DNA of 64,000 nt from an uncultured Gemmatimonadales bacterium (GCA_963739455.1 CAVUAK010000001.1:2272001-2336000); one strand, 5' to 3'; counted from the first letter of the stretch, positions 12,878 through 62,590 are shown. The notes: generated by a model from the letters alone, not told the origin. Made by a program: numbers and translations.

Positions 12878-12980
12878 AACTGCGTAAGGAGGAACTGCGA
12901 CAGCGTAAGGAGGAACTGCAACGGCGGTTACCCCAGTCGCTGTTCCTCCTCACGTTGTTTCTGTTCCTCCTCACGCTGTT
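12878..12980. repeat. 21-bp-unit palindromic element (copy 1)
   Basis: 2 x (R)ACWGCGTAAGGAGGAACTGC, central aacggcggttaccccagtc, 2 inverted units. Confidence 0.9.
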
Positions 12981-13002
12981 GGCATAGCCTTATCTTCCCC
13001 AC

Positions 13003-13917
13003 ATGACTCTGGGTCGTGTCGGGGAAAAAAAGCTGGGTCTCTGGGGCCGTCTCAAGCGCGTCATGCTCACGGACGTGGGCGCGCTGGTGCGCGGGCTCAA
13101 GGCTGCCGACCTGGAGGAGATCGAGCAGCTCCTGATCGAGGCCGACTTCGGCGTGCCCGCGACGATGGAACTGGTGGACGCACTCGAGCAGGGGGTGCGG
13201 TCGGGGAAGCTCAAGAAGGAAGACGACGTTCGTGAGGCGCTGATCGCGCGCCTGGCGGCGATGCTGCAGGGCCCGGAGCATCCGGAGCGGATCGCGCGCG
13301 CCAGCAGCGGCCTCACGGTGATCCTGGTGGTGGGTGTCAACGGGGTGGGGAAGACCACCACTGTTGCGAAGCTGGCGAAGCGGCTCAAGTCGGAGGGGCG
13401 AAAGGTGCTGCTCGCCGCCGCCGATACCTGGCGCGCGGGTGCGGTGTCACAGCTGCAGGTCTGGGCGCAGCGCATCGGCGTCGAGTGCGTCGCCGGCACC
13501 CAGGGCGGCGACCCGGCGGCGGTGGCGTTCGACGCGATCGAGGCGGCGACGGCGCGCGGACTCGATACGGTCATCATCGACACGGCGGGACGGTTGCACA
13601 CGCAGGACAACCTGATGGACGAACTGAAGAAGGTCACGCGCGTGATCACGCGGAAGGTGCCGGGCGCGCCGCACGAGACATTGCTCGTGCTGGATGGTTC
13701 GGTCGGCCAGAATGCGATCCAGCAGGGCCGGCTGTTCGGCGAGGCGGTGCAGCCCACCGGCGTCATCGTCACGAAGCTCGATGGCACGGCGCGCGGTGGG
13801 GCGGTGGCGGCCGTGCGGCGCGAGCTTGGCGTACCGATCCGGTTCGTGGGCGTGGGTGAAGGTGTCGATGACCTCGCGCCGTTCGAGGCGCGGGGGTACG
13901 CGGAGGGGCTGCTATAG
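13003..13917 (+). CDS. ftsY: SRP receptor FtsY
   Basis: GVNGVGKTTT, DTWRAGA, DTAGR, TKLDGTARGG. Confidence 0.95.
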   Translation: MTLGRVGEKKLGLWGRLKRVMLTDVGALVRGLKAADLEEIEQLLIEADFGVPATMELVDALEQGVRSGKLKKEDDVREALIARLAAMLQGPEHPERIARASSGLTVILVVGVNGVGKTTTVAKLAKRLKSEGRKVLLAAADTWRAGAVSQLQVWAQRIGVECVAGTQGGDPAAVAFDAIEAATARGLDTVIIDTAGRLHTQDNLMDELKKVTRVITRKVPGAPHETLLVLDGSVGQNAIQQGRLFGEAVQPTGVIVTKLDGTARGGAVAAVRRELGVPIRFVGVGEGVDDLAPFEARGYAEGLL

Positions 13918-15992
13918 TCACGCGCACTTCCTCGCTCCGGCCCGACACCCCGATCCAGTTCCTCAAGGGTGTGGGCGAGAAGCGGGCGGATGCGTTCGCC
14001 CGCCTCGGCATCCGCACTGCGCTCGACCTCGTGTGGCACCTTCCCCATCGCTATCTCGACGCCTCGACTCTCACCCCGCTCGCCAAGGCCCGCGTGGGCG
14101 ACGAGATCGCTGCCGTTGGACGGGTGATGGCGAAGCGGGTGCTGCCGACGCGAAAGGGGCTCCGGATTTTTCACGCGGTGCTGCGCGATGACTCCGGGTT
14201 GCTGGAGTGCGTGTGGCCGGGGCAGGCGTTCCTCGACCGCACCATCCGCGAGGGACAACTGCTGCTGGTGTCCGGGCCGGTGCGGTTCTATCACGGCCGA
14301 CAGATGGCACCGCGCGAGTTCATCATCCTGGGCGACGCCGACGACGCCGAGTCGGCCCCGGAGGGACTGATCCTCCCGATCTATCCCGCCACGGAAGGAC
14401 TGGGGCACCGGCAGATCCGGAACCTCATCGACCAGCACCTCGATGCGCTCATTCCCCTGATCACCGACCTGCTGCCCCCGGCGCGCCGTGATGCGCTGGG
14501 GTTGCCGACCCTGCCCGACGCGCTGCGGCTGGTGCATCGCCCGCCCAATGCGGCGGAAGCAGAACTCGGGCGACGGCGCCTCGCGTTCGATGAGTTGTTC
14601 GATGTGCAGCTGATGCTGGCGCGTGCGCGGGCGCTGGCCAAGCGGGACAAGGGCGGCCTGGTCCAGGTGAGCAACGCCACCTTCACCCGTCGGCTCCGCG
14701 AATCGCTCCCGTGGCCGCTCACGGGCGACCAGGAGAAGGCGCTCGGCCAGATCGCGAACGACATGGCGGCGCCGGAGCGCATGCACCGATTGCTGATGGG
14801 CGATGTCGGCACGGGCAAGACGGTGGTGGCGCTGCTGGCGATGCTGGTGGCGCTGGAGAACCAGCACCAGGCGGCGCTGATGGCCCCAACAGAACTCCTG
14901 ACGGAGCAGCATGCGACGACCCTCGCGCGGTTGCTTGCACCGCTCGGGATCATGCCGGAAGTGCTGCTGGGGCGGATGCCGGCCGCGGACAAGGCGTCGT
15001 CACGCAAGCGCATCGCCTCCGGGGCCGCGCGCGTGATCATCGGCACGCACGCGCTGCTGCAGGAGACGGTGGCGTTCAAGCAACTCGGGCTGGTGGTGAT
15101 CGACGAGCAGCACCGCTTCGGGGTGGAGCAGCGCGCGGCCCTGATCAACAAGGGCTCCGCACCGGACGTGCTGCTGCTGACGGCAACGCCGATCCCGCGA
15201 TCGCTCGCGCTCACGCTCTATGGCGACCTCGACGTATCCGCGCTGCGGGAGCGGCCGCCGGGGCGGGGGAAGGTGCGCACCGCGATCCGCTACGACGGCG
15301 AACGGGAGCGAGTGTGGGAATTCGTGGGGGAAGAATGCCGGCGCGGCCGGCAGGCGTACGTGGTGCTGCCGGTGATCGACGAATCAGAGAAGGCGGACCT
15401 GCGCGCGGCCACGACGATGGCGGAGCAACTCAGGACTCGCTACAAGGACCTGGAGGTGGGGCTGGTTCACGGCCGGCTCAAGCCGGAGGAACGCGACGCC
15501 GTCATGCGGCGCTTCCGCGACGGAACAGTCCATGTGCTGGTGGCGACGACGGTGATCGAAGTAGGCATCGACGTGCCGAACGCGACGATCATGGTCGTGG
15601 AGCACCCGGAGCGGTTCGGCCTGGCACAACTGCACCAGTTGCGCGGGCGGGTGGGACGTGGGGACGAGGAGAGCTACTGCATCCTGATGGCTGACGGCGG
15701 GGTGCCGGAGCGGCTCAAGGCATTCGCCGCCACGACCGATGGATTCAAGGTGGCGGAGCTGGACTTCCAGGAGCGGGGCATGGGCGACCTGATGGGCGCG
15801 AGGCAGTCGGGCGGCATCACGCTGCGGCACGCAAACCTGGCGACCGATGGCGACCTGCTCGAGAAGGCGCGCGCGATGGCGCGGGACGTGATCGAGCGGG
15901 ATCCGGCGCTGCAGAAGGCGGAGCATGGTGCGCTGCGGGACCGCGCGATTGCGCGGTTTCCGAGGGCGGTGGAGTTGTTTCGGGTGGGATAG
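13914..15992 (+). CDS. recG: ATP-dependent DNA helicase RecG
   Basis: GDVGTGKT, DEQHRFG, TATPIPR, QLRGRVGR; conserved LKGVG lies upstream of the first canonical start (13971), so the start is placed tentatively at ATA 13914. Confidence 0.93.
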   Translation: MVTRTSSLRPDTPIQFLKGVGEKRADAFARLGIRTALDLVWHLPHRYLDASTLTPLAKARVGDEIAAVGRVMAKRVLPTRKGLRIFHAVLRDDSGLLECVWPGQAFLDRTIREGQLLLVSGPVRFYHGRQMAPREFIILGDADDAESAPEGLILPIYPATEGLGHRQIRNLIDQHLDALIPLITDLLPPARRDALGLPTLPDALRLVHRPPNAAEAELGRRRLAFDELFDVQLMLARARALAKRDKGGLVQVSNATFTRRLRESLPWPLTGDQEKALGQIANDMAAPERMHRLLMGDVGTGKTVVALLAMLVALENQHQAALMAPTELLTEQHATTLARLLAPLGIMPEVLLGRMPAADKASSRKRIASGAARVIIGTHALLQETVAFKQLGLVVIDEQHRFGVEQRAALINKGSAPDVLLLTATPIPRSLALTLYGDLDVSALRERPPGRGKVRTAIRYDGERERVWEFVGEECRRGRQAYVVLPVIDESEKADLRAATTMAEQLRTRYKDLEVGLVHGRLKPEERDAVMRRFRDGTVHVLVATTVIEVGIDVPNATIMVVEHPERFGLAQLHQLRGRVGRGDEESYCILMADGGVPERLKAFAATTDGFKVAELDFQERGMGDLMGARQSGGITLRHANLATDGDLLEKARAMARDVIERDPALQKAEHGALRDRAIARFPRAVELFRVG

Positions 15993-16060
15993 GGTTCAGG
16001 GTTCAGGGTTCAGGGTTCGGGGTTCAGGGCTCTGAACCCTGAACCCTCAACTTTGAACCT
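15992..16060. repeat. (GGGTTCA)5 followed by inverted (TGAACCC)n; fills the recG/gdh convergent gap; probable bidirectional hairpin
   Basis: Direct reading of the sequence; the array touches both stop codons. Confidence 0.9.
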
Positions 16061-17475: not shown

Positions 17476-17568
17476 GACGGCTCCGGTCGGTAGATCGATC
17501 GTCACAACGGGGAGGTTCGGAGGGCTCCGTAGAGACCGGAATATGCGAAGCCGCCCGCCTGCCGCAAG

Positions 17569-17597
17569 TTGACCATACGGTGACCCGCCAGTAATCT
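17569..17597 (+). promoter_or_regulatory. Sigma70-type promoter for asnS
   Basis: TTGACC-N17-TAATCT, 10 nt before ATG 17608. Confidence 0.6.
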
Positions 17598-17607
17598 CCC
17601 TCCCGCC

Positions 17608-18903: not shown

Positions 18904-18906
18904 CTG

Positions 18907-19037
18907 AACAGCGTAAGGAGGAACAGAAAAAGCGTAAGGAGGAACTGAAACAGCGGTCACCGCGGTCGCGGTTCCTCCTCACGCCGTTGCAGCTCCTCCC
19001 TACGTGGTTTCCCTGCGCAGTTCCTCCTCACGTAGTT
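18907..19037. repeat. 21-bp-unit palindromic element (copy 2), overlapping the mazG 3' end
   Basis: 2 direct units, central aacagcggtcaccgcggtc, 3 inverted units. Confidence 0.9.
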
Positions 19038-19773
19038 TGGTCTGGTCCCATAGTTGGTCAAGCACTTCCAGCCCCGCCGTATGCATGTCGATTGCCTTCT
19101 CCGCAGCCATCCGCTCGATCTCGGCGAACCGGCGGCGGAACTTGGCATTGGTGCGATCGAGGGCCGGGCCGGGCTGCACGCCCGCCTTGCGCGCGACGTT
19201 GACGACGGCGAAGAGCAGGTCGCCGATTTCATCGGCCAGTGCCTCATGCCCATCCTGCCCGACTGAGAGTTCCTCCTCCACTTCCGCGAGTTCCTCCCGC
19301 ACCTTGTTGAGCGGGCCACCGACGTCGGGCCAGTCGAAGCCGACGCTCGCGGCGCGTTCCTGCAGCCGGTAGGCCATGAGGAGATCGGGCAGCGTGGGAG
19401 GCAGTCCCTCGAGGAGTCCCTTCCGTCCTTCCTTCCGCTTCAGCTGCTCCCAGGGTTCGCGCGGCCCCAGGTTGAAGAGGTGGGGATGGCGGCGCTCCAT
19501 CTTGCGCACGATGCGATCCGCGATGTCGTCAGGCGTGGTTTCCCCGCGCTCCTCCGCGATCACGAATTGCCACGCCAGGTGCAGGAGGAAATCGCCGAGT
19601 TCCTCGCGGATGGCGTCGGGATCTTCCTCACGGAGCGCGTGATCGAGCTCGAGGACTTCCTCGACGAGATAGGGACGCAGGGTCTCTCGCGTCTGCGAGC
19701 GATCCCAGGCGCAGCGGACGCGCAGGTCCTTCACGAGGTCGAGCACCCGCTCCAGCGGTGGCCTGTCTTGCAT
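19000..19773 (-). CDS. mazG: Nucleoside triphosphate pyrophosphohydrolase MazG
   Basis: CAWDRSQT, EELGD, RRHPHLF, GFDWPD, EIGDLLF, KFRRRF. Confidence 0.93.
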   Translation of the reverse strand: MQDRPPLERVLDLVKDLRVRCAWDRSQTRETLRPYLVEEVLELDHALREEDPDAIREELGDFLLHLAWQFVIAEERGETTPDDIADRIVRKMERRHPHLFNLGPREPWEQLKRKEGRKGLLEGLPPTLPDLLMAYRLQERAASVGFDWPDVGGPLNKVREELAEVEEELSVGQDGHEALADEIGDLLFAVVNVARKAGVQPGPALDRTNAKFRRRFAEIERMAAEKAIDMHTAGLEVLDQLWDQTKLREEELRRETT

Positions 19774-19805
19774 GGGTTCTCCGTCCCGGTAGCTTACGCG
19801 CCGAC

Positions 19806-29797: not shown

Positions 29798-29880
29798 CAG
29801 TCGACAGTCGGCGTGAGTCGACAGTCGTGAGTCGACCTGCGGACTGACGACTCCTGCGACTGACGACTGCCGACTGACGG
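29798..29880. repeat. SAGTCGN heptamer array with inverted half (hairpin)
   Basis: cagtcga/cagtcgg/gagtcga/cagtcgt then acgactc/acgactg/ccgactg. Confidence 0.85.
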
Positions 29881-29889: not shown

Positions 29890-30321
29890 ATGCCCATGCG
29901 TCCGCTGCCGAAGCTCCGAAGACTCTGCCTCGCCCTGCCTGAGGCGCACGAGGTGGAGGCGTGGGGCGAGCCAACCTTCCGGGTCAAGAACAAGCTCTTT
30001 GCCATGTTCGCGAGCGCGGGGAATCATCACGGCGGGGGCCGCAACTCCGTGTGGTGCAAGGCGGCGCCGGGGAACCAGGAGCTGATGATCGGTGTCGCGC
30101 CCGACCGGTTCTTCAAGCCGCCGTATGTGGGGCCGAGTGGGTGGATCGGGGTCTGGCTGGACGGAAAGGTGGACTGGGCGGAGGTGGGGGAGTTGGTGAA
30201 GGACAGCTACCTGCTGGTGGCGCCGAAGAAGCTGGGGCTGCAACTGGGTGAGGAGGAACCGAAAACGCGTAAGGCGGAACTGAAAAAGCGTAAGGAGGAA
30301 TCGAAAAAGCGTAAGCAATAG
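29890..30321 (+). CDS. MmcQ/YjbR family protein with repeat-derived C-terminal tail
   Basis: WGEPTFRVKNKLFA, FFKPPYVGPSGWIG, DSYLLVAPKK. Confidence 0.85.
   Translation: MPMRPLPKLRRLCLALPEAHEVEAWGEPTFRVKNKLFAMFASAGNHHGGGRNSVWCKAAPGNQELMIGVAPDRFFKPPYVGPSGWIGVWLDGKVDWAEVGELVKDSYLLVAPKKLGLQLGEEEPKTRKAELKKRKEESKKRKQ
30242..30321 (+). repeat. 21-bp-unit array (copy 3, direct units only) translated in-frame
   Basis: 3 units plus a partial one encoding LGEEEPK-TRKAELK-KRKEESK-KRKQ. Confidence 0.85.
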
Positions 30322-30326: not shown

Positions 30327-30374
30327 TTGTTACTTCAGCCTTCCGCGGTTAAGTTCAGTGGTTACCTGAACTTA
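30327..30374 (+). promoter_or_regulatory. Promoter with overlapping inverted-repeat operator
   Basis: TTGTTA-N17-TAAGTT; TAAGTTCAG-N7-CTGAACTTA perfect inverted repeat at 30350-30374. Confidence 0.55.
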
Positions 30375-30390
30375 GGATATCAGCAGCAAC

Positions 30391-33306: not shown

Positions 33307-34325
33307 CCGCCCGACAGTATGCGGCGGCTGGTGTGGACCTCAACACCGCCGAGGCCGCAAAGGAAAAGATCGGTCACCTGGTGGCGGGGACGCGCACGGC
33401 GCTCTCGGTGGGGCTGGTCGGCGCCTTCGGCGGCATGGTGCGCGTACCGGCCGGAATGAAGAAGCCGGTGCTGGTGCTGAGCACCGACGGCGTGGGCACC
33501 AAGGTGCTGGTGGCGCTGGAGGCAGGGCGGTTCGACACGGTGGGCGAGGACCTGGTCAACCACAGCGTGAACGACATCCTGGTGCACGCGGCGCGGCCGA
33601 TCGCATTCATGGACTACGTGGCGGGTGCGGCGCTGGGCGTGGAGATGATCGCCGGAATCGTGGAGGGCATCGCGCGCGGGTGCCGCAACCACGGGATGGC
33701 GCTGGCGGGCGGCGAGACGGCGCAGATGCCTGGTCTCTACCGCGAGGGAACGTTCGACCTGGCGGGCACGATCATCGGCGTGGTGGAAGAGGACGCGGCG
33801 CTGCACGGTGACCATGTGGTGCCGGGCGACGTGCTGCTGGGCTACGCCTCCACCGGCCTGCACACGAACGGCTATACACTCGCGCGCCGGATCATCTTCG
33901 AGCAGGCGGGACTCAAGCTGGGCGACACGCTCGGTGACACCGGCAAGTCGGTGGCCGATGCGCTGCTCGCGGTGCATCGCAGCTATGTGCCGACCCTGGC
34001 GCCGGTGCTGGGACAGGTCCACGCGCTGGCGCACATCACCGGTGGTGGCATCGGCGGAAACCTGGTGAGGGTGCTGCCGGAGAACTGCCGTGCGACAGTG
34101 GAGATGAAGTCGTGGGAGCGGCCGGCGCTCTACAAGTTCCTGCAGAAGGCCGGCAACGTGAGCGAGCCGGAGATGCGCGAGGTGTTCAATCTCGGCATCG
34201 GGATGATCGCGGTGCTGCCAGCCGCCTCGGTGGACCTCGCGCGTGCCGCGGCGCGCGTGGCGGGCGTGGAGACGTGGGTCATTGGGAAGGTGGAGGCTGG
34301 TGCACGCGACGTGGCTTTTGCGTGA
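33303..34325 (+). CDS. purM: Phosphoribosylformylglycinamidine cyclo-ligase
   Basis: YAAAGVD, TDGVGTK, GGETAQMPG, GLHTNG, HITGGG, FNLGIG. Confidence 0.95.
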   Translation: MTARQYAAAGVDLNTAEAAKEKIGHLVAGTRTALSVGLVGAFGGMVRVPAGMKKPVLVLSTDGVGTKVLVALEAGRFDTVGEDLVNHSVNDILVHAARPIAFMDYVAGAALGVEMIAGIVEGIARGCRNHGMALAGGETAQMPGLYREGTFDLAGTIIGVVEEDAALHGDHVVPGDVLLGYASTGLHTNGYTLARRIIFEQAGLKLGDTLGDTGKSVADALLAVHRSYVPTLAPVLGQVHALAHITGGGIGGNLVRVLPENCRATVEMKSWERPALYKFLQKAGNVSEPEMREVFNLGIGMIAVLPAASVDLARAAARVAGVETWVIGKVEAGARDVAFA

Positions 34326-34408
34326 GTCGGCAGTCGGCAGTCGACAGTCGGCAGGCAGTCGTCAGCTGACAGCTTTCTGATGACTGACGACAGACGACTG
34401 ACGACTGA
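34324..34408. repeat. SAGTCGN heptamer array with inverted half, between purM and ribD
   Basis: gagtcgg-cagtcgg-cagtcga-cagtcgg ... acgacag-acgactg-acgactg. Confidence 0.85.
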
Positions 34409-46215: not shown

Positions 46216-46707
46216 GTGATCGAAGTCACCGTGTCCGACATTCGGGTGGACCGGGCGAGCAACTCGCCCGTGGTGCTGCTCAGGGAGAAGGGCGGGACGC
46301 GCGTCCTGCCCATCTGGATCGGCCCGGCGGAGGCCAACGCCATCGCCATGGAAATGCAGGGGGTGCGAGCCCAGCGCCCCCTGACGCACGACCTCTTCAA
46401 GCAGGTGCTGACGGGTCTCGGTGGATCGCTTCGCCGGGTGATCATCAGCGCCGTCCGCGAGAACACCTACTTCGCCGAACTGCAGATCCATCGCGACGAC
46501 CATGTGTTCCAGGTCGATGCGCGCCCATCCGACAGCATCGCGCTCGCGCTCAGACTGCACGCGCCCATCTTCGCCGCCGAGGGCCTGTTCGATGATGCTG
46601 GTGTGCAGTCACCCGATGACGGCCCCGAGCCGACCATCGACCCCGAGTCCCTCAAGCACTACCTCGAGAAGCTCGATCCCCAGGATTTCGGCCGCTTCAG
46701 CCCGTAG
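46216..46707 (+). CDS. Bifunctional nuclease family protein (DUF151)
   Basis: LPIWIG..EA, RPLTHDL, DARPSDSIALA. Confidence 0.9.
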   Translation: MIEVTVSDIRVDRASNSPVVLLREKGGTRVLPIWIGPAEANAIAMEMQGVRAQRPLTHDLFKQVLTGLGGSLRRVIISAVRENTYFAELQIHRDDHVFQVDARPSDSIALALRLHAPIFAAEGLFDDAGVQSPDDGPEPTIDPESLKHYLEKLDPQDFGRFSP

Positions 46708-47834
46708 CCTTGCGCTGGCCCTGCTCGCGACGGGGCTGCTGGCGCCGTCGGGCGTGGCAGCACAGGCGCGCGTGGGCGGCACGGTGGCACGCCTGGCCTC
46801 GGGCGATACCGTGCCACTGGCGGGAGCGCGCGTGGTGCTGCACCGGCTCACCGCGACGCAGCAGGGTCCGGTGGACTCGGTGCTGTCCGATGCCGCCGGC
46901 CGCTTCCAGTTCCGCGTGACCGCGGACACCACCGCGCTGCTCCTCACCAGCTCGCTTCACGACGGCATCGAGTACTTCTCGCGCCCGGCGCGCCCGACAG
47001 CGCAGGGTCCCGATACCGGGCTGGTCGTGCTGGTGGCGGACACGTCGTCGTCGGCGCCGGTGTCGCTGGCCGGTCGCTACCTGATGATCGGGAAGCCGCA
47101 GCAGGGCGGCCGGCGCGGCGCGCTCGACCTCATCGTGCTGCAGAATCGCGGCGACATGACGCGGGTGGCGAGGGACAGCGCCGCGCCGGTGTGGTCGATG
47201 CCGATGCCGGCGGGCATCCAGGACTTCACCCCGGGTGAGAGCGAGTTCTCGGCGGCGGCGGTGGGACACCGGGACGACTCGCTCACCATCTCGGCACCGT
47301 TGTCTCCCGGAGACCGGCAGCTGCTGGTGACGTACACCTTCCCGCTCGGCGTGAAGAAGGTCAGGGTGCCCTTCGCGGCGGCCACTGACAGCGTGGTGCT
47401 GCTGCTGGAGGAACCGACTGCGCGAGTGGTGACGCCTGGCTTCGCTGCGCGCGACAGCCAGGTGATCGAGACGCGCACCTATCGCCGGTGGGTGGGCTCG
47501 ATACCGGCAGCAGGCGAGGTGGAGGTGAAGTTCGAGGTGCCGGGTGAGGGTGGCCGGGAGGCGACGCTGGCACTGGCGGCGCTGCTGGCGGCGGGACTGT
47601 TCGCGGGAAGCATCGTGCTGTTGCGCCGGCGGAGCGGCGCCGGCCAGGTGGCAGTCGCTCCCGCCCGGGCGCGATGCGGCAGGGCTCATCGATGCGCTCG
47701 CCCGCCTCGATGCGCGGTTCGCCGGGCGGGAGGCGGAGGTGGGCGCCGCGGCGTGGTCGGAGTACGTGGTGCAGCGAGCGGAGCTCAAGGCCGCACTCGA
47801 TGCCGCGATGGCTGCGCGCCCTCCCATGCACTAG
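46685..47834 (+). CDS. Exported protein with carboxypeptidase-regulatory-like N-terminus and C-terminal TM (start uncertain; frameshift near 47660)
   Basis: Signal-like LALALLATGLL..AAQ, V.LH...SD..G.F.F motif, TM LALAALLAAGLFAG, helical tail LIDALARLD...Y...RAELK. Confidence 0.6.
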
Positions 47835-47842
47835 GCTGCAGC

Positions 47843-48605
47843 ATGCCCCTCGTCTCCACTCCCGCCATCGTCCTCGCGACGCTCCGGTACAGTGAGACGT
47901 CCAAGATCGTGCGGCTGGCCACGCGAGAACATGGTATCCAGAGTGCCATGGCGAAGGGTGCCTCGCGGCCCAAGAGCAGGTATGGTGCGGCGCTGCAGGT
48001 GCTGAGTGAGGGGCTCGGCGCAGTACATCGCGAAGGAGGGCCGCGAGCTGCACACGCTCACGGCGTTCGACGTGACCCACCTGCGGGTGGGGCTGGCGGG
48101 CCAGCTGGACCGCTACTCCGCGGCGTCGGCGATGTCCGAGGTGATGCTGCGGCTGGCACCGCCGGCGCCGCACGCCGAGAGCTTCGACGTGATGGCGCAC
48201 GCGCTGGCGATGCTCGAGGCGATCCCCACCGAGGCGGTGGAGAGCTACGGCCTCAGGGCGCTGTGGCAGCTGGTATCCTCGCTCGGATTTGCGCCAGCGC
48301 TCGCGTCGTGCGCGCGCGACGGCTCGGCGCTCCCGGCGAGCGGCACGGTGCGCTTCAGCCTCACCGACGGCGGCGCCCTCTGCAATGCGTGCGCGCACGA
48401 GCGCGCCACCATCGAGCTGCCGCGCCAGGCGCTCGACGACCTCGCCGCACTCCTCTCTCCCGATGCCGACCTGCCATTCCTCGATGCGCGGCACCTCGCC
48501 GCGCACCGCCGCCTGCTCGCGCGCTGGGTGCGCGTTCACCTGGCGGAGGCGGCCGACCTGCCGGCGCTCGAGTCATGGCAGCAGCGGAACTGGTTTCCCG
48601 CATGA
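47843..48605 (+). CDS. recO: DNA repair protein RecO (frameshift near 48015)
   Basis: AIVL...YSETSKIV...G....AKGA.RPKSR; zinc motif CARD...C..C. Confidence 0.9.
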
Positions 48606-50461
48606 TCTTCGGGATGGCGGGGCACGTGGACCATGGCAAGTCGGCGCTGGTAACGGCACTGACCGGGCGACCGATGGACCGGCTGGCGGAGGAGCGTCGA
48701 CGGGGCATCACGATCGACCTCAACTTCGCGTCGCTGGAGATCGCGCCAGGGGTGGTGGCGGGCATCATCGACGTGCCGGGGCACGAGGACTTCATTCGCA
48801 CGATGGTGGCCGGCGCGTCGGGGATCGATGCCGCGATCCTGGTGGTTGCCGCCGATGAAGGGATCATGCCGCAGACCCGGGAGCACCTGCTGGTGCTGGA
48901 ACAGCTGCGCGTGCCGGTGGGTGTCGCGGTGCTCACCAAGGCTGATGCCGTCGATCCCGACTGGCTCGAGCTGGTGAAGGCGGAAGTGGCGGAGTGGCTG
49001 GCAGCGTCATTGGTGCCGTTCGGCGAGCCGCTGGTGACCTCGGTGAAGACGGGACAGGGCGTAGAGGCACTTCGCGCGAGGCTCAACGAACTCGCGCTCA
49101 CCGGCCGGGTGCGCAATGCCAACGACCTGTTTCGACTGCCGGTGGACCGGGTGTTCACCGTGGCGGGGACGGGCACGGTGGTGACCGGCACCGCGATGTC
49201 TGGATCGGTGGCGGTGGGTGACAGCGTCGTGCTGCAGCCTTCGGGGCGCGAGGCTCGGGTGCGCACCATCGAGTCATTCGGGCAGTCGCTGGATCATTCG
49301 TTGCCAGGAGCCAGGACGGCAGTGGCACTGAGCGGCCTGGAGCGGGACGACATCGCGCGAGGGGACGTGCTGGTACTCGCGTCCGGGCAATGGGAGGCGA
49401 GCACCCGGATCGATGCGGAGGTGATGCTGGTGACGGATGCCGTCGCGCTCACGGACCGGAGCAGGGTGCGGGTGCATCACGGCACGGCGGAAGTGATGGC
49501 GCGCGTGCGGCTGGACAACCCGCTCCAGCCGGGCCAGACCACGGTCGCGCGCCTCACCCTTGAATCTCCGCTGCTGGCCCGGGGTAACGACCGGCTGGTG
49601 CTGCGGAGTTACAGCCCGATGACGGTGATCGGGGGAGGGCGGATCGTCGATCCGAGTCCGGGAAGCCGACGCCACCTGCCGGCAGGCCTCGGCTCGAGTG
49701 ATCCTGCCGCGCGACTCGAGGCACTGGTGGAGCGTCGCCGAAATGGAGTCGATTTGCGCCTGCTTCCGGTGCTGCTGGGCCTGCCGCCGTCCGACTGTGA
49801 AGCGCTGGCGCGGAGCTCGCCGACGCTCATGCCGGCGGGCGAGCTCCTGGTGCGGCGGAGCGAGGTGGACCGCCTGGGTGAACAGTTGATGCGCGAGGTA
49901 GGGGGCTATCACGAGCGTGAGCCCCACGAAGCGGGGTTGTCGCTCGAGACGCTCCGCCACTCCCTCCGGGTGCCGGACGCCATCGCCGATGTGGCCCTGA
50001 ATCAAGCGGAGCAGGGGGGACGGCTTCGGCTGCGAGGGGGCGTGGTATCGGTGCCGGCCTTTCAAGCGGTGCCGAGGGCAAGCCCGGACGACCAGCGACG
50101 CCTGGTGTCGACCGTGGAGGAGGCAGGCCTGACGGTCCCGCTGCTCAGCGAGGTCGCGGAACGGCTGGGACTGGCCCTGTCCGGGCCAAGGCTGGAGCAG
50201 GCTGCCGTCGACGGGAACCTGATCAGGGTCGAGCCAGGCCGGTATCTCGCCCGAGTGGCCCTGGAGGGGTTCGCCGAAGTGGTACGGGAGGTGGGGGCGC
50301 TGGGGGAGATCACGCCGGGGCTGCTCCGCGACCGTACCGGGCTCTCGCGCAAGTTCCTGATCCCGCTACTGGAATGGTCGGACCGGTGCGGAGTTACCTA
50401 CCGTGTGGGGGATGCCCGACGGCTGCGGGTGCCGCGGCCAGGGGTACGGCAGGGTGCTTGA
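48602..50461 (+). CDS. selB: Selenocysteine-specific elongation factor SelB
   Basis: GHVDHGKS, EERRRGITIDL, DVPGHE, PQTREHL; C-terminal winged-helix SRKFLIPLLE..D..G.T.R.GD.R. Confidence 0.93.
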   Translation: MIFGMAGHVDHGKSALVTALTGRPMDRLAEERRRGITIDLNFASLEIAPGVVAGIIDVPGHEDFIRTMVAGASGIDAAILVVAADEGIMPQTREHLLVLEQLRVPVGVAVLTKADAVDPDWLELVKAEVAEWLAASLVPFGEPLVTSVKTGQGVEALRARLNELALTGRVRNANDLFRLPVDRVFTVAGTGTVVTGTAMSGSVAVGDSVVLQPSGREARVRTIESFGQSLDHSLPGARTAVALSGLERDDIARGDVLVLASGQWEASTRIDAEVMLVTDAVALTDRSRVRVHHGTAEVMARVRLDNPLQPGQTTVARLTLESPLLARGNDRLVLRSYSPMTVIGGGRIVDPSPGSRRHLPAGLGSSDPAARLEALVERRRNGVDLRLLPVLLGLPPSDCEALARSSPTLMPAGELLVRRSEVDRLGEQLMREVGGYHEREPHEAGLSLETLRHSLRVPDAIADVALNQAEQGGRLRLRGGVVSVPAFQAVPRASPDDQRRLVSTVEEAGLTVPLLSEVAERLGLALSGPRLEQAAVDGNLIRVEPGRYLARVALEGFAEVVREVGALGEITPGLLRDRTGLSRKFLIPLLEWSDRCGVTYRVGDARRLRVPRPGVRQGA

Positions 50462-51033: not shown

Positions 51034-51090
51034 AACTGCGTGAGGAGGAACCGCAACAGCGTAAGGAGGAACTACAACTGCGTAAGCGGC
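51034..51090 (+). repeat. 21-bp-unit array (copy 4, direct units only)
   Basis: AACTGCGTGAGGAGGAACCGC / AACAGCGTAAGGAGGAACTAC / partial. Confidence 0.85.
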
Positions 51091-51151
51091 AAGCGGTGAG
51101 CGGGCCCTGGCGTCCGCATCTCGCATGTCCTGCCAAATGGGCGCATTTTAG

Positions 51152-53805: not shown

Positions 53806-54289
53806 GGGGACACCGTCGGTCCGGGACATCGCCGGCATGGAGGCGGCCCTTCGGCGGGCGCGGGCAGCGGCGGTGCGAGACGAGGTGCCGGTCGGTGCCG
53901 TCATTGCGCGCAACGACGAGGGCGACTTCCTGGCCGAGGCGCACAACGAGACGGTACTACGCAAGGACCCGACGGCGCATGCGGAGTTGCTGGCGATCCA
54001 ACAGGCGCTGAAGGCGCTGGGCACCGACCGCCTGACCGGCGTCACGCTGTACGTCACCCTCGAGCCCTGTGCGCAGTGTGCCGGAGCGATCATCCTGGCA
54101 AAGGTAGAGCGGGTGGTGTTCGGGGCCTGGGACCAGCGCGCGGGAATGGCGGGATCGGTGATGGACCTGCTCCGGGACCCGCGGCTCAACCACCGGCCCG
54201 AGGTGGTGGGTGGCGTGCTGGCGGAGGAGTGCGGCGAGATGCTGCGACAGTTCTTCCAGGCGCGACGGGGCGGGGGGTGGGGGCGATAG
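53798..54289 (+). CDS. tadA: tRNA adenosine(34) deaminase
   Basis: [28 protein letters not shown]. Confidence 0.9.
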
Positions 54290-54400
54290 GCGTTGGGCGT
54301 TAGGCGTTGGGCGTTAGGCGTTAGGCGTTAGGCGTTAGGCGTTAGGCGTTAGGCGTTAGGCGTTAGGCGTTAGGCGTTGGGCGTTAGGAGTCAGGAGTTG
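54282..54400 (+). repeat. (GGCGTTR)14 heptamer tandem repeat with degenerate flanking units
   Basis: 14 units at 54289-54386 plus GGCGATA before and GGAGTCA/GGAGTTG after. Confidence 0.95.
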
Positions 54401-55004: not shown

Positions 55005-55014
55005 CTTTGCGGGC

Positions 55015-55046
55015 GAGTCGGCAGTCGGCAGTCGTCAGTCAGTCGA
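55015..55046 (+). repeat. SAGTCGN heptamer array overlapping the bestrophin stop
   Basis: gagtcgg-cagtcgg-cagtcgt-cagt-cagtcga. Confidence 0.75.
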
Positions 55047-55856
55047 CAGAGTCAGGATGGCGCGGACGTCCAGCGCGATTCCCGTCGAGATATCGTCAAG
55101 CGGCAGGTCATTCCGGTCCTCGCCGAACGGTTCCTCCACCTCGCCTGCCAGCAATTCCAGTCCCATGGTCGAGAAGAACAGGAACATCTGGGCGAGGATG
55201 GTGCCGTAGCCGAACTCGCCGGCCAGGGCGAAGGGCACGATCAGCGCATACAACACCACGAACTGCTTGATGTAGCTGCTGTACGAGAACGGAATCGGCG
55301 TCTTGAGTATGCGCTCGCATCCGCCCTGAATGTCGTCGTACGCTGCCATCATCGGGGTGAGTGAAATGAGCGACTCGCGCGGGAGCATGCCGGCGCGAAT
55401 ATCGTCCTGGACCGCATGCACGAGCTGGCTGATGAGGCGGCCCGGCTCGCGGAGCCCCTTGCCGCGCAGGCGCTCGCTCAAGGCGTGAGGGTAGGCTGCG
55501 AGCAGCTCCGCGTACGTGGCGCGTCGTTCCGTGGACGGAGGGGGGAGGAGGGCATCCAGCTGGCGGGCGAGGGCCCGGCTCACGTTGGTGAGCTGTCCCC
55601 AGAAACGGCGCCCCTCCCACCAACGGTCGTAGGCGGTATTGGTGCGAAACACCAGCAGCAAGCCGAGTATGATGCCGAGCAGCGAGAGGATCGAGGGCCC
55701 GAAGGGATCCTGTATCTCGAAACGCAGCTCGACCCAGACGACAATGCCGGCGTAAAGCCCGACTCCAAGGACGTCGAGGATCAGGGTGGTGAAGATCCGG
55801 CTTCGCGGGAAGCTCAGGAGGACGTGCCACCAGCGCTTCGGGTCGTAGTTGATCAT
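55035..55856 (-). CDS. Bestrophin family ion channel (YneE-like)
   Basis: LLVFRTNTAYDRWWEGR, CERILKTPIP, EEPFGED.NDLPLD. Confidence 0.92.
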   Translation of the reverse strand: MINYDPKRWWHVLLSFPRSRIFTTLILDVLGVGLYAGIVVWVELRFEIQDPFGPSILSLLGIILGLLLVFRTNTAYDRWWEGRRFWGQLTNVSRALARQLDALLPPPSTERRATYAELLAAYPHALSERLRGKGLREPGRLISQLVHAVQDDIRAGMLPRESLISLTPMMAAYDDIQGGCERILKTPIPFSYSSYIKQFVVLYALIVPFALAGEFGYGTILAQMFLFFSTMGLELLAGEVEEPFGEDRNDLPLDDISTGIALDVRAILTLSTD

Positions 55857-55883
55857 TCGGGCATTGTGGTGGAATGTTCCCCC

Positions 55884-56324: not shown

Positions 56325-56362
56325 AACAGAGGGCCCTCGGCGTGGGCGGACAAGTGCCCGGG

Positions 56363-56391
56363 TTGGCGGAACCGGTGGTGCTGGTTACGTT
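56363..56391 (+). promoter_or_regulatory. Putative tRNA promoter
   Basis: TTGGCG-N17-TACGTT followed by a GC-rich discriminator. Confidence 0.45.
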
Positions 56392-56411
56392 TTCGCCCCG
56401 CAGTGCGTGCT

Positions 56412-56498
56412 GGACAGGTGTCCGAGTGGCTGAAGGAGCCGGTCTCGAAAACCGGTAAACCGGTAACGGTTTCGAGGGTTCGAATCCCTCCCTGTCCG
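56412..56498 (+). tRNA. tRNA-Ser(CGA)
   Basis: Acceptor GGACAGG/CCTGTCC plus discriminator G, anticodon arm CCGGT-CTCGAAA-ACCGG, long variable arm, GGTTCGAATCC; CCA not encoded. Confidence 0.95.
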
Positions 56499-56509
56499 TC
56501 TTGTTGTCC

Positions 56510-59500
56510 CTACTTCAGGATCGACTTCTCGATCCCTCCCCGCACCGCAAACCACAAGAACTGGATGACCGACTCACCTGCAAAGGTGTGATCGATCGTA
56601 CCCACGCGCGGCGGTTCACCCTCCTGCGAAGGGTTGTCGCGCCGAATGAAGAACGTCCGCGCGAGGAAGGTCAGCACGCTGAACTTGACCCGCTTGAAGA
56701 AGCCGGCGGTCGGGTCGTGCAGCCTGACCCGGAGCCCGGTGTAGATGGGCACGATGGTGCCGACCGCGTGACCGTCCCTCGAGCCGACGGAGAAGGTGAC
56801 TTCGTGGAACTGTCCGCCCTCGATGGTGACCGGCAAGTTCTTCTGGGCGAACTGGTTGATGGCGACCGCGGGCATGGGCCCGAGCCGGCCATAGTAGGTC
56901 GCGTCGAGCCCGGATGCGGTGAGGGGCACCGTGGCGAAGGCGTCGAGCTTGCCCATGCCGAAGATGGTGCTGTGGGTCTCGATGCGGAGCGGCGGGCTCT
57001 GGCCGGCCACGCCGCGGCTGGTAAACCCGGTGATCATGGCGGTGATGGCGGTGAAGGTGACGCCACCCGCCTCGGGCTTCCCCACCTCGAGCTCATTGTA
57101 CACCACCGCACCGTCGATGACGGAGAGCGAGTCGATGCCGAAGGGGAACCTGATGCTCTGCACGTCATGCTGCACGGTGGAGTGGAGCTTCTTCACCGTG
57201 TCGGCCACGAGGTTCTTGTCGGTGAAGGCGTCGATGCCGAAACCATAGACGCTGCCATGCCGAAGCCAGAGGCCGTCGCCCAGGATGAGGCGGTCGAAGT
57301 CGAGCCCCGCGAGTTGCACGCTGTCGGCGCCGACCCGGATGCGGTCCCGGCGATGTGACTGGCGGGAGACCCAGACCGAGTCGGGGACGGTCGGGCCGAT
57401 CCTGATGTTGCCGATACGGGCGCTGGAATCGGAGAGGCTCGCAATGAAGGATCCGACGGTAAAGCTGCTCATCGGGTTGTCGTCGATGACGATGTCGGTG
57501 GCAGAGACCACCGCCCGCTTGCTGATGTGCCGTATGCGCGACTCGCGCGAGGCGCCGGGATTCAGTGCCACGCCCTCGGCAGCGAGGCTGGCCTTCTTCA
57601 CACTGTAGGTGTGCGACCCTCCATCGGGCTTCACGTCGACGTAGCGGAAGTGCACCAGAGGGGCGCTCAGGTTCCCGATGGCCAGCGGAAGACCCGCTTT
57701 CTGCCCGGTTTCCCGGTCGACCGGTTCCTCGAGGGAGTCCTTCGCGCTGCCGACATGGCGCACCTCGACGTCGAGGGTGCCCACGGACACGCGTCGCATG
57801 CGCACCGCCTTGCCGCGCACCAGTTCTCCCAAATGAATTCCCGCGAGCTCGACGCTGTCGAGTGCGACGGTGACGCCGCTCGTCGGCAGTTCGCCGGCGC
57901 GCGCCGAGTCGTGGGGTGACCCGGTGTGCAGCCGCATGCCGTGGAGCGAAATGGTGGAATCGCCGAGGTTGATGGCAACCGACGCCGCGCGCGCATTCGC
58001 CGGCGGACCGGCGAGGGTCACGCCGGAGATGCGCGCCACGATGTCCTGCTCGACCAGCGGCCGGGTGACGCCGCGCTGGAGGTCGATGGAGCGCCCGGTG
58101 ACCGCGATACGGTCGAGGGACAGCACGAGGGGAGCCTTGCCGGGTTCGCGGCGGGTGTAGAGCCCGCGTCCCCGAAGGACCTCGAAGTCCCGGACGGCAA
58201 TGGGGAAGGAGAGGCCGGTGAAGAGGGAGTCGTGAGTCGTGAGTCGTGAGTCGGCAGGGGGTCGTGGCGCTTGCGCGACCCCGGCGTCGACCGTGACGTC
58301 GAACGAGGCATTGCCGACGATCGCCTGGCGCATGGTGGCACCGTGGCCATCGGCCAGCCGGACAAAATCGACGCCGGTCATCCGCATGCTGTCGAGCGCC
58401 ACGTTCACGGTAGTGCGCCGGGGGAAGCGGGTGTAGTGCGGCGCGATGCGAATGCTGTCGATGGTGAGGGTGGAGTCGTCGAGGCTGACGGCGACCCGGC
58501 CCACGGCGAGTGACCGGACCTTGCCCCAGTGGCGATCGATGTCGGTGAGGACCAGCTTGATGCGCTGCTGCATGAGCGGCACGAGGGGGCCGCTTCCCTC
58601 GACCACGAGCTTCTCGCCGGTGACCGCGACGCGCTTCACCGTGAACTCGCGGTCGGGGAGGCCGGGGTGATGCTCGATGTAGGTGACGTCTCCCTCGGCG
58701 CTTAGCCGGCCGATGTTGGTGGGCACGCCCATGTCCGCGAGGGTGGAGTCGAGCGCGGGCTGGGCACGCTCCGAGCGCTTCGGCGGCGCGGGAAGCCCCA
58801 TGTTCTTCTGCAGCCGCACCCGCACGCCGCTGACTGCCATGTCACGGGCATCGAGTATCGAATGCACGATGAGGCGGTCGTAGTTGACCCCCCGCAGGAC
58901 AACGCTGTCGATCACGGCACGCCCAAGGGTCTGGCGCACCTTCTGGCGGCGCATCCAGTCGGCGTCGCTGATCCCGGGGCCAACGGTCAGTTGCCGGGCC
59001 ACCAGCACCGAGTCGCCCACCTTCAACCGGAGCTGACCCATGGTGAGCAGCTTGAGTGAATCGGCGGTGCCATAGGTGGCGCCATCCAGCGTGAGATCCA
59101 CGACGCGGGCAAGCAACGGGCGCTGCCGTGTCGGTGGAAGATCGGGGTCGATCAGGATCTCACTGGCCTTGAAGGCGACATGCGGCAGCCAGACCGTGAC
59201 GTTCGGGGCCCCGGGGCGATGCTGGATATAGCGCGCCGTGCCATCAACCAGCTCGACGGTGTCGGCCTCGAGCCGCACGGTGGACGCTGTCGCTGCGGCC
59301 TCGTGGACCGGGGAGACGGCGCGCACCGTGGGCGGACGGGGCGGCAGCGAGGCATCGGTTTCGATGGTGGTGTTGAGCCCGCCGATCACGATGCGCTCGC
59401 TGGTGACCGTCCCGTGCATGATGAGCTCGGCGAGGTTGATGCCGGCGAACTGGACGCTGTCCGCCTGCAGCTCGACCCATGGCCTTCGATACTTCTGCTG

Positions 59501-60346: not shown

Positions 60347-60369
60347 GCGGACAGAAGAATAGCAGGAGG

Positions 60370-60392
60370 GGGAACAGGGAACAGGGAACAGG
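60370..60392 (+). repeat. (GGGAACA)3 in a divergent intergenic region
   Basis: Direct reading. Confidence 0.85.
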
Positions 60393-60433
60393 TTGTCCTT
60401 GTGCGCGACCGACTGGATCGGCAGACTCCGCGC

Positions 60434-61414
60434 ATGAACCTGCATTCACCGGTGCCGACGATTGTTCCGAGGCCGCGAGACTACCTGGAAACGCGGGACG
60501 GGATGTTCCTCGCGGTGGTGTCGTCCATGGTGGATGACGGGCATGCACTCACGAGCCTGCGTTACGTGCGGCGGGGCGGGGTGCTGGTGAAGCTCGGCAC
60601 GGACGAGGCCAACCAGTACCTGCGTGACCACCGGCCGACATACCTGGCTCATTCGGCGCTGATCGATGCGATGATCCACCTGGTGCCACTCGGCGATGTG
60701 GTGAGAGTCCACCGGCCGGACCTTCGGCTTGCGGCGCTCAGAACAGCGGGAACAGGGAACAGGGAACAGGGAACAGGACACGACCTGGCGAGCCTGGCGC
60801 TGCGGGTGGTGGAGGCGCTCGAGCGCGGAGGGGCGCCGGTGGGGAGAATCGGGCTGGGCGGATCGCTGCTGCTGGGGGCACAGCACGCCGAGTCGGACAT
60901 CGACCTGGTAGTGTACGGCCGGGCAGCGTTCGAGGCGGCGCGGCGGGCGCTCGGGGCCGCGGTGGCGTCGGGAGGGCTCGATGCGCTCGATCGAGGGCAG
61001 TGGGAGGCTGCGTGGACGCGTCGCGGCAGCGACCTGACGCTGGAGGAGTATGTGCGGGCTGAAGTGCGCAAGCTGAACAAGGCGGTGATCGCGGGGACGC
61101 GGGTGGACCTGACGCTGGTGGTGGACAGGGACGAGGAGGTGCCGGAGCGGGGTCCGTTCAGGAAACTGGGGAGGTTGGTCGTGACGGCGGAGGTGGTGGA
61201 TGCGGTGTCGGCGTTCGATCATCCGGCGCGATACCGGGTGCGGCATGACCAGGTAAGCGAGGTGGTGTCGTTCACGCCGACGTATGCGGGGCAGGCGGTG
61301 GCGGGGGAGATCATCGAGGCCGCGGGATGGCTGGAGGTGGATTCGGTGGGGGCACGGAGGGTGGTGGTGGGGACGAGCAGGGAGGCGGGGGGGGAGTACA
61401 TCAAAACAGCGTGA
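60434..61414 (+). CDS. Pol-beta superfamily nucleotidyltransferase, archaeal COG1665-like
   Basis: GLGGSLLLG....SDIDLVVYG catalytic motif; C-terminal SFTPTYAGQA..GE.IEA.G.LE...VVGTSRE. Confidence 0.7.
   Translation: MNLHSPVPTIVPRPRDYLETRDGMFLAVVSSMVDDGHALTSLRYVRRGGVLVKLGTDEANQYLRDHRPTYLAHSALIDAMIHLVPLGDVVRVHRPDLRLAALRTAGTGNREQGTGHDLASLALRVVEALERGGAPVGRIGLGGSLLLGAQHAESDIDLVVYGRAAFEAARRALGAAVASGGLDALDRGQWEAAWTRRGSDLTLEEYVRAEVRKLNKAVIAGTRVDLTLVVDRDEEVPERGPFRKLGRLVVTAEVVDAVSAFDHPARYRVRHDQVSEVVSFTPTYAGQAVAGEIIEAAGWLEVDSVGARRVVVGTSREAGGEYIKTA
60748..60777 (+). repeat. (GGGAACA)4 inside a CDS
   Basis: Encodes GTGNREQGTG. Confidence 0.9.
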
Positions 61415-61528
61415 GGAGGAACTGAAACAGCGTGAGGAGGAACTGAAACAGCGTGAGGAGGAACAACGACTGCGGTAACCGCCGTTGCAGTTCCTCCTTA
61501 CGCCGTTGCCGTGCCTCCTTACGCTCTT
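61405..61528. repeat. 21-bp-unit palindromic element (copy 5)
   Basis: 3 direct units (two identical AACAGCGTGAGGAGGAACTGA), central gactgcggtaaccgccgtt, 2 inverted units. Confidence 0.92.
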
Positions 61529-61529
61529 G

Positions 61530-62450
61530 CTACTTCGCCAGGTTCTTCCTGAGGTCTCCCAGGTTCAGCATCGGCACGCCGCCCTCGGTGGGCACGAGGA
61601 TGACCAGGTTGCTGGATGTCTTCATGCCCTCCAGCACCTCGAGATACTGCTTGGTGAGGGCCTCGGGGGTGAGGGTCTGGTTGAGCAGGCGCTGCTGTTC
61701 CGCCTGAAGCCGGGCGACATCGACGCGATGGCGCTCGGTTTCCACCTGCTGTTCCTGGGCAATCTTGGAGTTGATGGCCTGCACCACCTGTTCGGGCGGC
61801 TGGAGATCGCGCAGGAAGAAGGCGGTGATCTCCGCGATGCGGAATGGCGGGCCGCCGGAGCGGGGCTGGGTTTCCAGCGCGGAATCGACCTCGGCCTTCA
61901 TCCGCTCGGCGATCTTGTTGCGATCCGCGATCTGGTTGATGGAGAAGGCGGACATGCCGTCGCGGACGCCGTTCCGGATGGCGTTCTGGACCACACTCTC
62001 GATCTGCTCGTGCCCGCCGATCTCGGTGTAGATGCGGGGCGCCTGCTGGGGGTCGATCTGCCAGCGGACTGCGGCATCGATGTTCATTCCCATCTGTTCA
62101 CTCGAAAGCGCCGGAATGCGCTCGGCCTGCTCGCCGGTGCGGGGCCATTGCTCCTCGCGGGTGGAGAAGCGCTCAACCTCCGACCATGGCAGGACGAACC
62201 GAACCCCGGGGAGCAGCGGCTCCGGCTGCACCTTGCCGAAGGCATGCAGCACGCCAACCTGTCCGGCGTCGATGACCACGAAGGAGCTGGTGGAAAGCGC
62301 CAGCACACCCAGGATGGCCAGCACCAGGCCCACGAGGCGCGTCAGCGCGGCACCGGGGCGAGGTGAGGCGCTGGTCTTCATGCCAGACGCGGTGGCGAGG
62401 ACGATGAGGGAGATGAACAGGAGGACGAAGCCCAGGACCAGGCGTGTCAC
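61530..62450 (-). CDS. SPFH/prohibitin family membrane protein
   Basis: TM helices, VIDAGQVGV...GKV, PG.RFV.PW, LRDLQPP, AINSKIAQEQ coiled coil. Confidence 0.88.
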   Translation of the reverse strand: MTRLVLGFVLLFISLIVLATASGMKTSASPRPGAALTRLVGLVLAILGVLALSTSSFVVIDAGQVGVLHAFGKVQPEPLLPGVRFVLPWSEVERFSTREEQWPRTGEQAERIPALSSEQMGMNIDAAVRWQIDPQQAPRIYTEIGGHEQIESVVQNAIRNGVRDGMSAFSINQIADRNKIAERMKAEVDSALETQPRSGGPPFRIAEITAFFLRDLQPPEQVVQAINSKIAQEQQVETERHRVDVARLQAEQQRLLNQTLTPEALTKQYLEVLEGMKTSSNLVILVPTEGGVPMLNLGDLRKNLAK

Positions 62451-62487
62451 GGAGTCTCCGGCGTGTGGGGATGGTTAAGGGTACTTC

Positions 62488-62590
62488 AACGGCGTGAGGA
62501 GGAACAGCGACTGCGTGAGGAGGAACTGAAACAGCGGTGACCGCAGTTGCGGCTCCCCCTTACGCTTCTGCAGTTCCTCTTGACGCAGTT
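62488..62590. repeat. 21-bp-unit palindromic element (copy 6)
   Basis: 2 direct units, central aacagcggtgaccgcagtt, 2 inverted units ending at the PadR stop. Confidence 0.9.

Follow-up and report, generated by a model that had tools for sequence, protein, structure and literature searches.

Two kinds of element close to the one described here are already in print, each separately: S23p cassettes within ribosomal RNA (rRNA), and heptamer arrays that follow stop codons. According to the accessible part of PMC4990558, the 23S rRNA intervening sequence (IVS) of Coxiella combines a four-helix open reading frame (ORF) with arms that contain heptamers. Structures, though no function, are available for the four-helix-bundle family, heptamer arrays past stops are unexplained in several phyla, and the present case links both. 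We analysed a stretch of 64,000 nucleotides of an uncultured Gemmatimonadales bacterium (GCA_963739455.1 CAVUAK010000001.1:2272001-2336000; this whole stretch is called the window), in which six loci, starting at 12878, 18907, 30242, 51034, 61405 and 62488, are built from a dispersed 21-bp unit. Judged from sequence, these six loci are very probably gene-less arms of a TIGR02436/S23p four-helix cassette, and the chance that they are such arms and were also spread by strand-directed DNA copying seems slightly better than even. In the literature searched, which left subscription papers outside, we found no description of the 21-mer unit and no account of this class of four-helix cassette outside rRNA.

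The source genome (G000; 3.6 Mb, 67% G+C, 84% complete), of which the window is C1:2272001-2336000, was compared with its close congeners G001, G003, G004, G006, G008 and G009 and with loci designated by L-numbers such as L232; contigs from four sequencing runs supplied the alleles of relatives, no RNA run being listed as a holder and the shares reaching only 0.05-0.07, and genes were called with a simple in-house model, some of whose calls are wrong. The six loci stand where the first-pass annotation had placed them and have the layouts it described. A profile search for the unit at a threshold of at least 18 bits found 112 units in G000 and 1 in the reversed genome used as control. The 21-bp unit occurs at 52 loci of G000, 42 of them one-armed (solo) and 10 two-armed, and the exact two-unit pattern was found at 67 loci of 5 assemblies, all Gemmatimonadota/Gemmatimonadales, among 185,579 species genomes. 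The 21-mer is present in 5/11 congeners (66 matches in G001 and 37 in G003) and in 0/29 other relatives, so the family is indeed dispersed genome-wide, as had been supposed, and restricted to one lineage.

The unit keeps its exact length, as first noted, with a spacing of 21 in 53/57 adjacent pairs. The fixed architecture first proposed, direct units around a 19-nt centre followed by inverted units, is found at four loci of the window and is a minority form in the genome, where 10/52 loci are two-armed and 5 of these have a 19-nt centre, 4 of them inside the window. Outside the window the centre measures 4-103 nt, and in other genomes it is 19 nt in 12/42 cases. The four window centres are composed of 7 nt, GTNAC and 7 nt, the one at 12878 being one base off the consensus given at first. 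The imperfect hairpin was confirmed for the two-armed loci, which fold far better than shuffled sequence (z -3.7 to -8.1, six folds), and not for the two solo loci of the window (z +1.1 and +0.6). The hairpin with its 19-bp centre had also been taken as the spreading unit; this was rejected, because 42/52 loci are one-armed and the 19-bp form recurs mostly at a few identical orthologous junctions.

The kinship with four-helix cassettes comes from the metagenome locus L232, where units at 876 and 897 (+) and at 1360 and 1381 (-) enclose a gene at 984-1340. The cassette is located between pdxA and a convergent gene, and both host stops lie inside the outer units. A search for a flanking four-helix-bundle gene had been suggested in the first-pass annotation, and the enclosed gene is of that kind, matching TIGR02436 with 62.6 bits against a cut-off of 24. 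Its protein matches XCC0516, phmmer relates it to 2gsc (E 2.8e-7), and the structural model (pLDDT 94) has 2gsc and 2rld as its best fold matches; compared with Avd (PDB 4dwl, 8ub7/8ub8), the model gives a TM-score of 0.76-0.80 by query length, at 10% identity and with weak E-values. The closest relative of this gene, 70% identical, occupies the same locus in G000 (C3:177724-178074), and its arms consist of the first 11 bases of the unit, then GTGAGGG. The 3' end of pdxA also carries a four-helix gene in G000, G001, G003, G004, G006 and G008, each with its own arm word. G000 has five four-helix-bundle genes (PF05635), each beside inverted short tandem arrays whose 7-9-base words also make up hundreds of free arrays, and a four-helix gene was found in 33/41 genomes of the order. 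Inverted 10-mers common to both sides of the gene were found at 76/91 four-helix loci as compared to 39/897 mismatched pairs, and at 5/91 loci in direct orientation.

The genome-wide profile of the unit gives the consensus AACAGCGTGAGGAGGAACTGC, which is composed of a cap (GGAACTGC-AACWGC) and one GTRAGGA heptamer. The same cap is common to the 7-mer arms of the genus, which begin with AACWGC, continue as (GTRARSG)n and often close with GGAACTGC. A 21-mer repeat is likewise an AACWGC cap, one GTRAGGA heptamer and a closing cap, and many 21-mer arrays pass in register into heptamers. It is on the gene enclosed at L232 and on this shared cap that the assignment of the window loci as probable gene-less cassette arms is based.

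About 5 positions of the unit are free and the remaining ones (about 16) are fixed at 84-99%, with 87 distinct sequences among the 112 units. Adjacent units are 3.6 bases apart and random pairs 3.8; for the paired arms of an element the difference is 5.2 bases, for arms from different elements 4.2. Because a unit resembles its neighbour no more closely than it does a random unit, and the arms of one element are not better matched, the constraint would fit recognition of the sequence rather than recent slippage or selection for pairing; recent slippage was rejected as the source of the arrays on the first ground, and compensatory pairing for want of any covariation between arms. The consensus contains no inverted word of at least 4 nt, no GTAG and no CGTC, and GGAG occurs only in mid-unit.

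Purifying selection acts on the four-helix protein, with pN < pS in all 21 pairs, and its gene is far more diverged than the adjoining pdxA (pS 0.60-0.81 vs 0.31-0.58). Arm words are held in common by 9/14 protein pairs at 70% identity or more and by less than 1% of pairs below 60%. At the pdxA locus the proteins form two clades in a quick tree, and GTRAACG arrays, numbering 0 in G000 and G008 and 50, 8, 65 and 63 in G001, G003, G004 and G006, occur with one protein clade only, matching that split. Since protein similarity tracks the word, and fixed positions are kept while free ones vary randomly, the protein is predicted to bind or recognise the repeat word. The word is long and rich in information, with about 16 fixed positions, and therefore a binding test would be easy. 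An amino-acid-to-base code was also sought and given up, its signals lying at clade level only and being inseparable from kinship.

A hard constraint is added by the strict polarity of the arms together with a multi-focus strand bias. In 42/42 solo arrays the left-arm (purine-rich) reading lies on the locally G-rich strand, and this holds for skew measured over 20, 40 and 80 kb and for a gene-corrected third-position skew. Gene direction was rejected as the cause, since it predicts the orientation of 15/42 solo arrays only; 1550/2775 genes (56%) agree with the local GC skew. All array families follow the skew (237/261 in G000 and 56/68 in 63 sampled stretches of G006), and arrays number 3.85 per 20 kb in strong skew as compared to 0.74 in weak skew. 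The skew of G000 is sawtooth-shaped, turning sharply from plus to minus near C1 77, 779, 1486 and 2459 kb, and G006, which is collinear with G000, shows the same pattern with flips at C7 about 960, 1915, 2720 and 3410 kb. At four-fold sites it amounts to an exchange of G for C, with G at 0.48-0.58, C at 0.30-0.36, and A and T unchanged. Sampled at 20 stretches in each of two genomes from another family, the skew appeared weak and irregular.

The dnaA gene is at 881 kb, and by their motifs a pair of sites at 834 kb is parS-like and a site half a genome from dnaA is dif-like, the contig order being inferred from G006. Simple origin-terminus replichores were rejected as the cause of the polarity, because only 20/40 solo arrays fit dnaA-dif replichores. 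From the sawtooth, chromosome replication or repair would seem to converge at several points; as two independently assembled species share the pattern, it is an oddity of either process that can be tested. The accessible part of PMC11237797 describes Gemmatimonadota chromosomes with one skew peak at the terminus. The polarity of arrays with skew was not described in the literature searched, nor was a multi-focus skew, on which the supplements of PMC11237797 may bear. A two-armed 21-mer element is found 1 kb from the dif-like site (G000 C2:41360 and C2:42340). Near a skew change, the contig start G000 C3:1251-4410 holds small genes and a terminase-like ORF (labelled from reading its translation), possibly a prophage remnant.

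The arms are placed at gene ends. The outer end of an arm falls within -25..+30 nt of a same-strand stop in 36/53 callable arms (62 were examined) as compared to 82/378 random intergenic points; the unit's own TRA serves as the host stop in 14 arms, and 5 arms read through. Every one of the ten two-armed loci touches a stop, and five are flanked by convergent genes. In the window, as had been noticed, all six loci are found at the 3' end of a gene or close to it. The two-armed element at 12878..12980 (2 direct and 2 inverted units, centre 12920-12938) begins 1 nt past the stop of the upstream gene (12876) and ends 22 nt before ftsY; its site carries the 21-mer in G008, arms of other heptamers in G001, G003, G004 and G009, and no element in G006. 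That at 18907..19037 (2+3 units, the outer inverted unit shifted by 7 nt) lies between a class II aminoacyl-tRNA synthetase gene (+) and the convergent mazG (-), the reading frame of which extends into the outer arm, and the site has the 21-mer in G008 and heptamer arms in G001, G003, G004, G006 and G009. The element at 61405..61528 (3+2 units) is found between convergent genes, with a TGA in unit 1 (61412-61414) as the stop of the + gene and the stop of the SPFH gene at 61530; G001, G003 and G008 have the 21-mer there, G004 has heptamer arms, and G006 and G009 have none. At 62488..62590 (2+2 units), between padR (-), whose stop overlaps the outer cap, and the SPFH gene (-), the 21-mer occurs in G003 and G008, heptamer arms occur in G001, G004 and G006, and none in G009.

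The two solo arms are both on the + strand. The arm at 30242..30315, with three direct units (30242-30304) and a partial unit, falls within the final 26 codons of a YjbR-family gene (29896-30321) and is translated as its C-terminal tail; the site has a two-armed heptamer element in G001 and none in G006 and G009. The arm at 51034..51107, upstream of clpB, starts 39 nt past a stop, behind a terminator-like hairpin, and its two direct units (51034-51075) continue in register into a cap and GTRAGCG-type heptamers; a different heptamer array is present in G003 and none in G001, G006 and G009.

The family is not static at orthologous sites. The four two-armed sites of the window in six congeners (24 cells) have another word in 13, the 21-mer in 7 and no element in 4, and the two solo sites behave like them. 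For 52 junctions of G000 the ortholog in some other genome is a 21-mer site; in G000 itself the 21-mer is at 30 of them, a different short array at 16 and nothing at 6, so junctions with the 21-mer only elsewhere carry another short array in 16/22 cases as compared to a background of 190/2272 junctions (8%), in counts where kin are not independent and loci with no mappable ortholog (30/143 rows) were dropped. Existing arrays, or the same exposed junctions, may attract new arrays. No target-site duplication is evident: the words outside the element ends are shared over 2.9 nt on average and over 3.3 nt by chance (10 loci; at 80% DNA identity short duplications could escape).

We propose that the arms were laid down at gene ends by strand-directed DNA copying, which is likely because all 42 one-armed copies follow the local strand bias; if the cassette kinship is granted, such polar copying is favoured with modest confidence. 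A 3' DNA end running toward a skew focus would switch onto, or recombine with, an existing arm as template, and the four-helix protein is predicted to hold or recognise the repeat word. One 3' end would give a solo arm, and two facing ends or a whole cassette would give the inverted form; in-frame stops in the units would make gene ends tolerated sites. Copying would take place at the DNA level with host enzymes, because no RAYT, reverse transcriptase (RT) or RNase III was found, which removes these three as the agent in one lineage. A wider version, in which the four-helix proteins are the specificity part of a repeat-writing system, host enzymes are made to extend 3' DNA ends at gene junctions, on one side or both of a break or fork, with the word of each protein, and the arrays record or help impose a chromosome with four or five points of convergence in place of a single origin-terminus axis, is doubtful.

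Several observations weigh against this proposal. The 21-mer arms enclose a four-helix gene at only 1/157 searched loci (L232). The protein pairs at 70% identity or more are mostly orthologs, and the protein clades divide as the species do in a 20-gene tree, so the repeat word and the protein may just be co-inherited; the order of clade replacement is not rooted, because a nine-genome, three-gene tree, which groups G004 with G003 and G008, is poorly resolved. G001 and G003 have many 21-mers yet only the other protein clade, and G004 (77% complete) has a four-helix gene and no 21-mer match. GTGAGGG arrays are common in G006 and G009, where no matching gene was found, and for GGGAACA (47 arrays) the 84% complete G000 yielded no four-helix gene with that word. 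Some arms enclose host sequence, such as a terminator-like hairpin (L233) or a start codon (L131, L247), and therefore a single inserted cassette does not explain them. The four-helix fold is not known to have polymerase or nuclease activity. Finally, the polarity of the solo arms could come from biased loss of one arm and not from biased gain.

This last possibility is the alternative that survives best, and we consider it unlikely without being negligible. In it, symmetric cassettes or hairpins insert with no polarity, and a strand-biased deletion of one arm, during replication or repair, later makes the solo arms polar. Indeed, some orthologous sites have two arms in one genome and a single arm in another (30242 as compared to G001, and L086 as compared to G000 C1:2270239), and the skew around the two-armed loci is just as strong (median 1624 vs 1570). 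However, the five-fold rise of array density with skew is unexpected from loss of arms, and arms that enclose host terminators or start codons fit a separate placement of each arm.

Less probable still, though worth weighing, is that the arrays are domesticated RNA elements, sites of the four-helix protein past stops that protect, end or couple transcripts, required at particular junctions and for which any word serves. The anchoring at stop codons, the reuse of junctions and the conserved fixed positions agree with it, as do an enrichment between convergent genes (14/292 vs 3/235 divergent) and the stop codon overlapping AGGAGG in every unit. On the other hand, 7/34 called solo arms are off the sense strand of the upstream gene, yet all 42 follow the DNA strand bias, and the sites are often empty in close relatives, with no U-tract and no covariation of the arms.

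The arrays might also be polar signals of the chromosome, such as KOPS and Ter sites are, bound by the four-helix proteins and helping to set up the multi-focus skew. In favour of this, 38/40 solo arrays point to the nearest skew flip and 46/50 loci are within 250 kb of one (55% expected), as compared to the 20/40 that fit dnaA-dif; these flip counts are not independent of the 42/42 polarity, because the flips were picked from the same skew. The unit words turn over fast, several congeners are without these arrays, and the skew at four-fold sites is far stronger than the array sequence could cause, which makes the explanation improbable.

Excision of a hairpin from RNA by RNase III and its spread through an RNA step, as in the 23S rRNA IVS, has even less chance. 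The accessible part of PMC4990558 gives the same gene family, layout and arm heptamers for Coxiella, and the two-armed loci fold strongly. RNase III, described as highly conserved in the part of the review PMC3071783 that was available, was found in 1/41 genomes of the order (not in G000 or in 39/40 relatives), as a single match on a 1.5-kb contig beside era that may be contamination; two other models (0/4 and 0/5 genomes) and tblastn gave none. The four-helix gene, on the other hand, is present in 33/41 genomes. No report of RNase III loss in this order was found in the literature searched. RT (PF00078), one of the partners suggested at first, was found in 0/5 genomes, and 42/52 loci are unable to form a hairpin. 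Since RNase III was found in 1/41 genomes and RT in 0/5, an IVS-type excision route is unlikely here. The weakest explanation, a REPIN family moved by a RAYT (Y1 HUH) transposase as proposed in the first-pass annotation, has in its favour inverted doublets, extragenic position, lineage restriction and presence or absence among relatives resembling the REPINs of PMC3337134 and PMC3733652 (as far as their accessible parts go), and was dismissed because PF01797, the only transposase family searched, was found in 0/6 genomes (one 99% complete, G000 84%), the unit has no internal palindrome, and the gene between the arms is a four-helix gene.

The GxxExxY family, the other suggested partner, was not found either (PF13366 in G000 and the five congeners with the 21-mer). 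In other relatives GxxExxY (PF13366) genes stand between inverted arrays with 9- to about 20-base units (L011-L031, e.g. L012, L014 and L019), and the L019 unit has AACTGCG in common with the 21-mer. DUF559 was rejected as a partner, with one weak match and no repeats around it.

The window also holds other heptamer arrays. Solo arrays on the + strand are a GGGAACA array at 7934..7970, of a sister family, with another word in G008, two more of the same word at 60370..60392 and 60748..60777, a GGCGTTA array of 17 units at 54282..54399, whose word also flanks the four-helix gene at G000 C1:368059, a GTCG-type array at 55016..55049 and a GAGTCGT array at 58227..58253. A GGGAACA array at 12551..12589 (+) lies inside the gene upstream of the 12878 element, and contigs of runs X1 and X2 have 22-26 other letters in its place and are joined across. 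Two-armed elements are of the AGGGTTC type at 15991..16059, between convergent stops, and of the GTCG type at 29798..29879, after fbp, and at 34325..34408. The 15991..16059 junction is empty in G001 and G009 and has other elements in G003 and G008, that of G008 (L213/L214) being a different palindromic element of the GTCATCCTGAGC type.

Units that are read through give charged heptad tails in YjbR (EEEPKTRKAELKKRKEESKKRKQ, 30242-30321) and MazG (19000-19037). At L131:1404-1560, L247 and G000 C3:292445-292650 the arms enclose a ribosome site and a start codon, with words that differ among genomes, and the right arm is translated as the hydrophobic stretch of a probable signal peptide. Gene remnants were sought in the long centres of L131, L247 and L275, and nothing there matched the four-helix loci. 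A separate palindrome at 30346-30376, upstream of the next small gene, is kept in G001, G006 and G009 and is likely an operator. A single long open frame at 46502-50461 spans RecO N-terminal and SelB domains and is probably two genes in frame. The tRNA gene at 56412-56498 is the sole Rfam match in the window, with none at the repeat loci.

As compared to known systems, the L232 protein shares, by its model, the four-helix fold of Avd, a protein of diversity-generating retroelements; here no RT, template or variable region was found, and the variation of units is not limited to adenines. The Nostoc STRR heptamers and SDR elements, reportedly described by Mazel in 1990 and Elhai in 2008, are said to be 21-27-nt dispersed repeats with heptamer arrays, present or absent at orthologous sites; the SDR elements, likened here by description and not by sequence, are reportedly single structured units and not tandem arms of a gene cassette. 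For the strand preference, the strand-targeted insertion of IS608-type elements is said to be a precedent. Unlike miniature inverted-repeat transposable elements, the family has centres of 4-103 nt, 87/112 distinct units, no fixed-length copies and no Y1 transposase. Unlike intrinsic terminators, it has no U-tract and 42/52 loci without a hairpin, and the sites of relatives are empty or hold other words. It also differs from GxxExxY-associated repeats in that the 21-mer flanks no PF13366 gene in G000 or the five congeners.

Like the repetitive extragenic palindromic (REP), REPIN and RAYT systems, as given in the available parts of PMC3337134 and PMC3733652, these repeats are non-autonomous and extragenic, form inverted doublets, are polymorphic between relatives and include one domesticated gene flanked by its own repeats; the unit here is not palindromic, the arms are tandem arrays, there is no RAYT and the associated protein has no known catalytic activity. 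With the S23p-bearing 23S rRNA IVS of Coxiella and Leptospira (PMC4990558, accessible part) they have in common an ORF of the same four-helix family between terminal inverted repeats, with tandem heptamers in the arms. The arms described here, however, lie between or in protein-coding genes, none of the six in an rRNA gene, and are mostly gene-less and one-armed, with a compound 21-bp unit, in a lineage where RNase III was not found. The Xanthomonas GGGAATC and Nostoc GGGGA(C/T)T arrays (Rehm et al. 2015, PMC4692102) are likewise dispersed tandem arrays, often in inverted pairs, with the G-rich strand directly past the stop codon, and are rare between divergent genes. In the part of that report available to us, those heptamers are tied to no gene, keep stable loci and show no leading or lagging preference, whereas here the 21-bp unit has no G4 tract, and the arrays are swapped between species and strictly polar.

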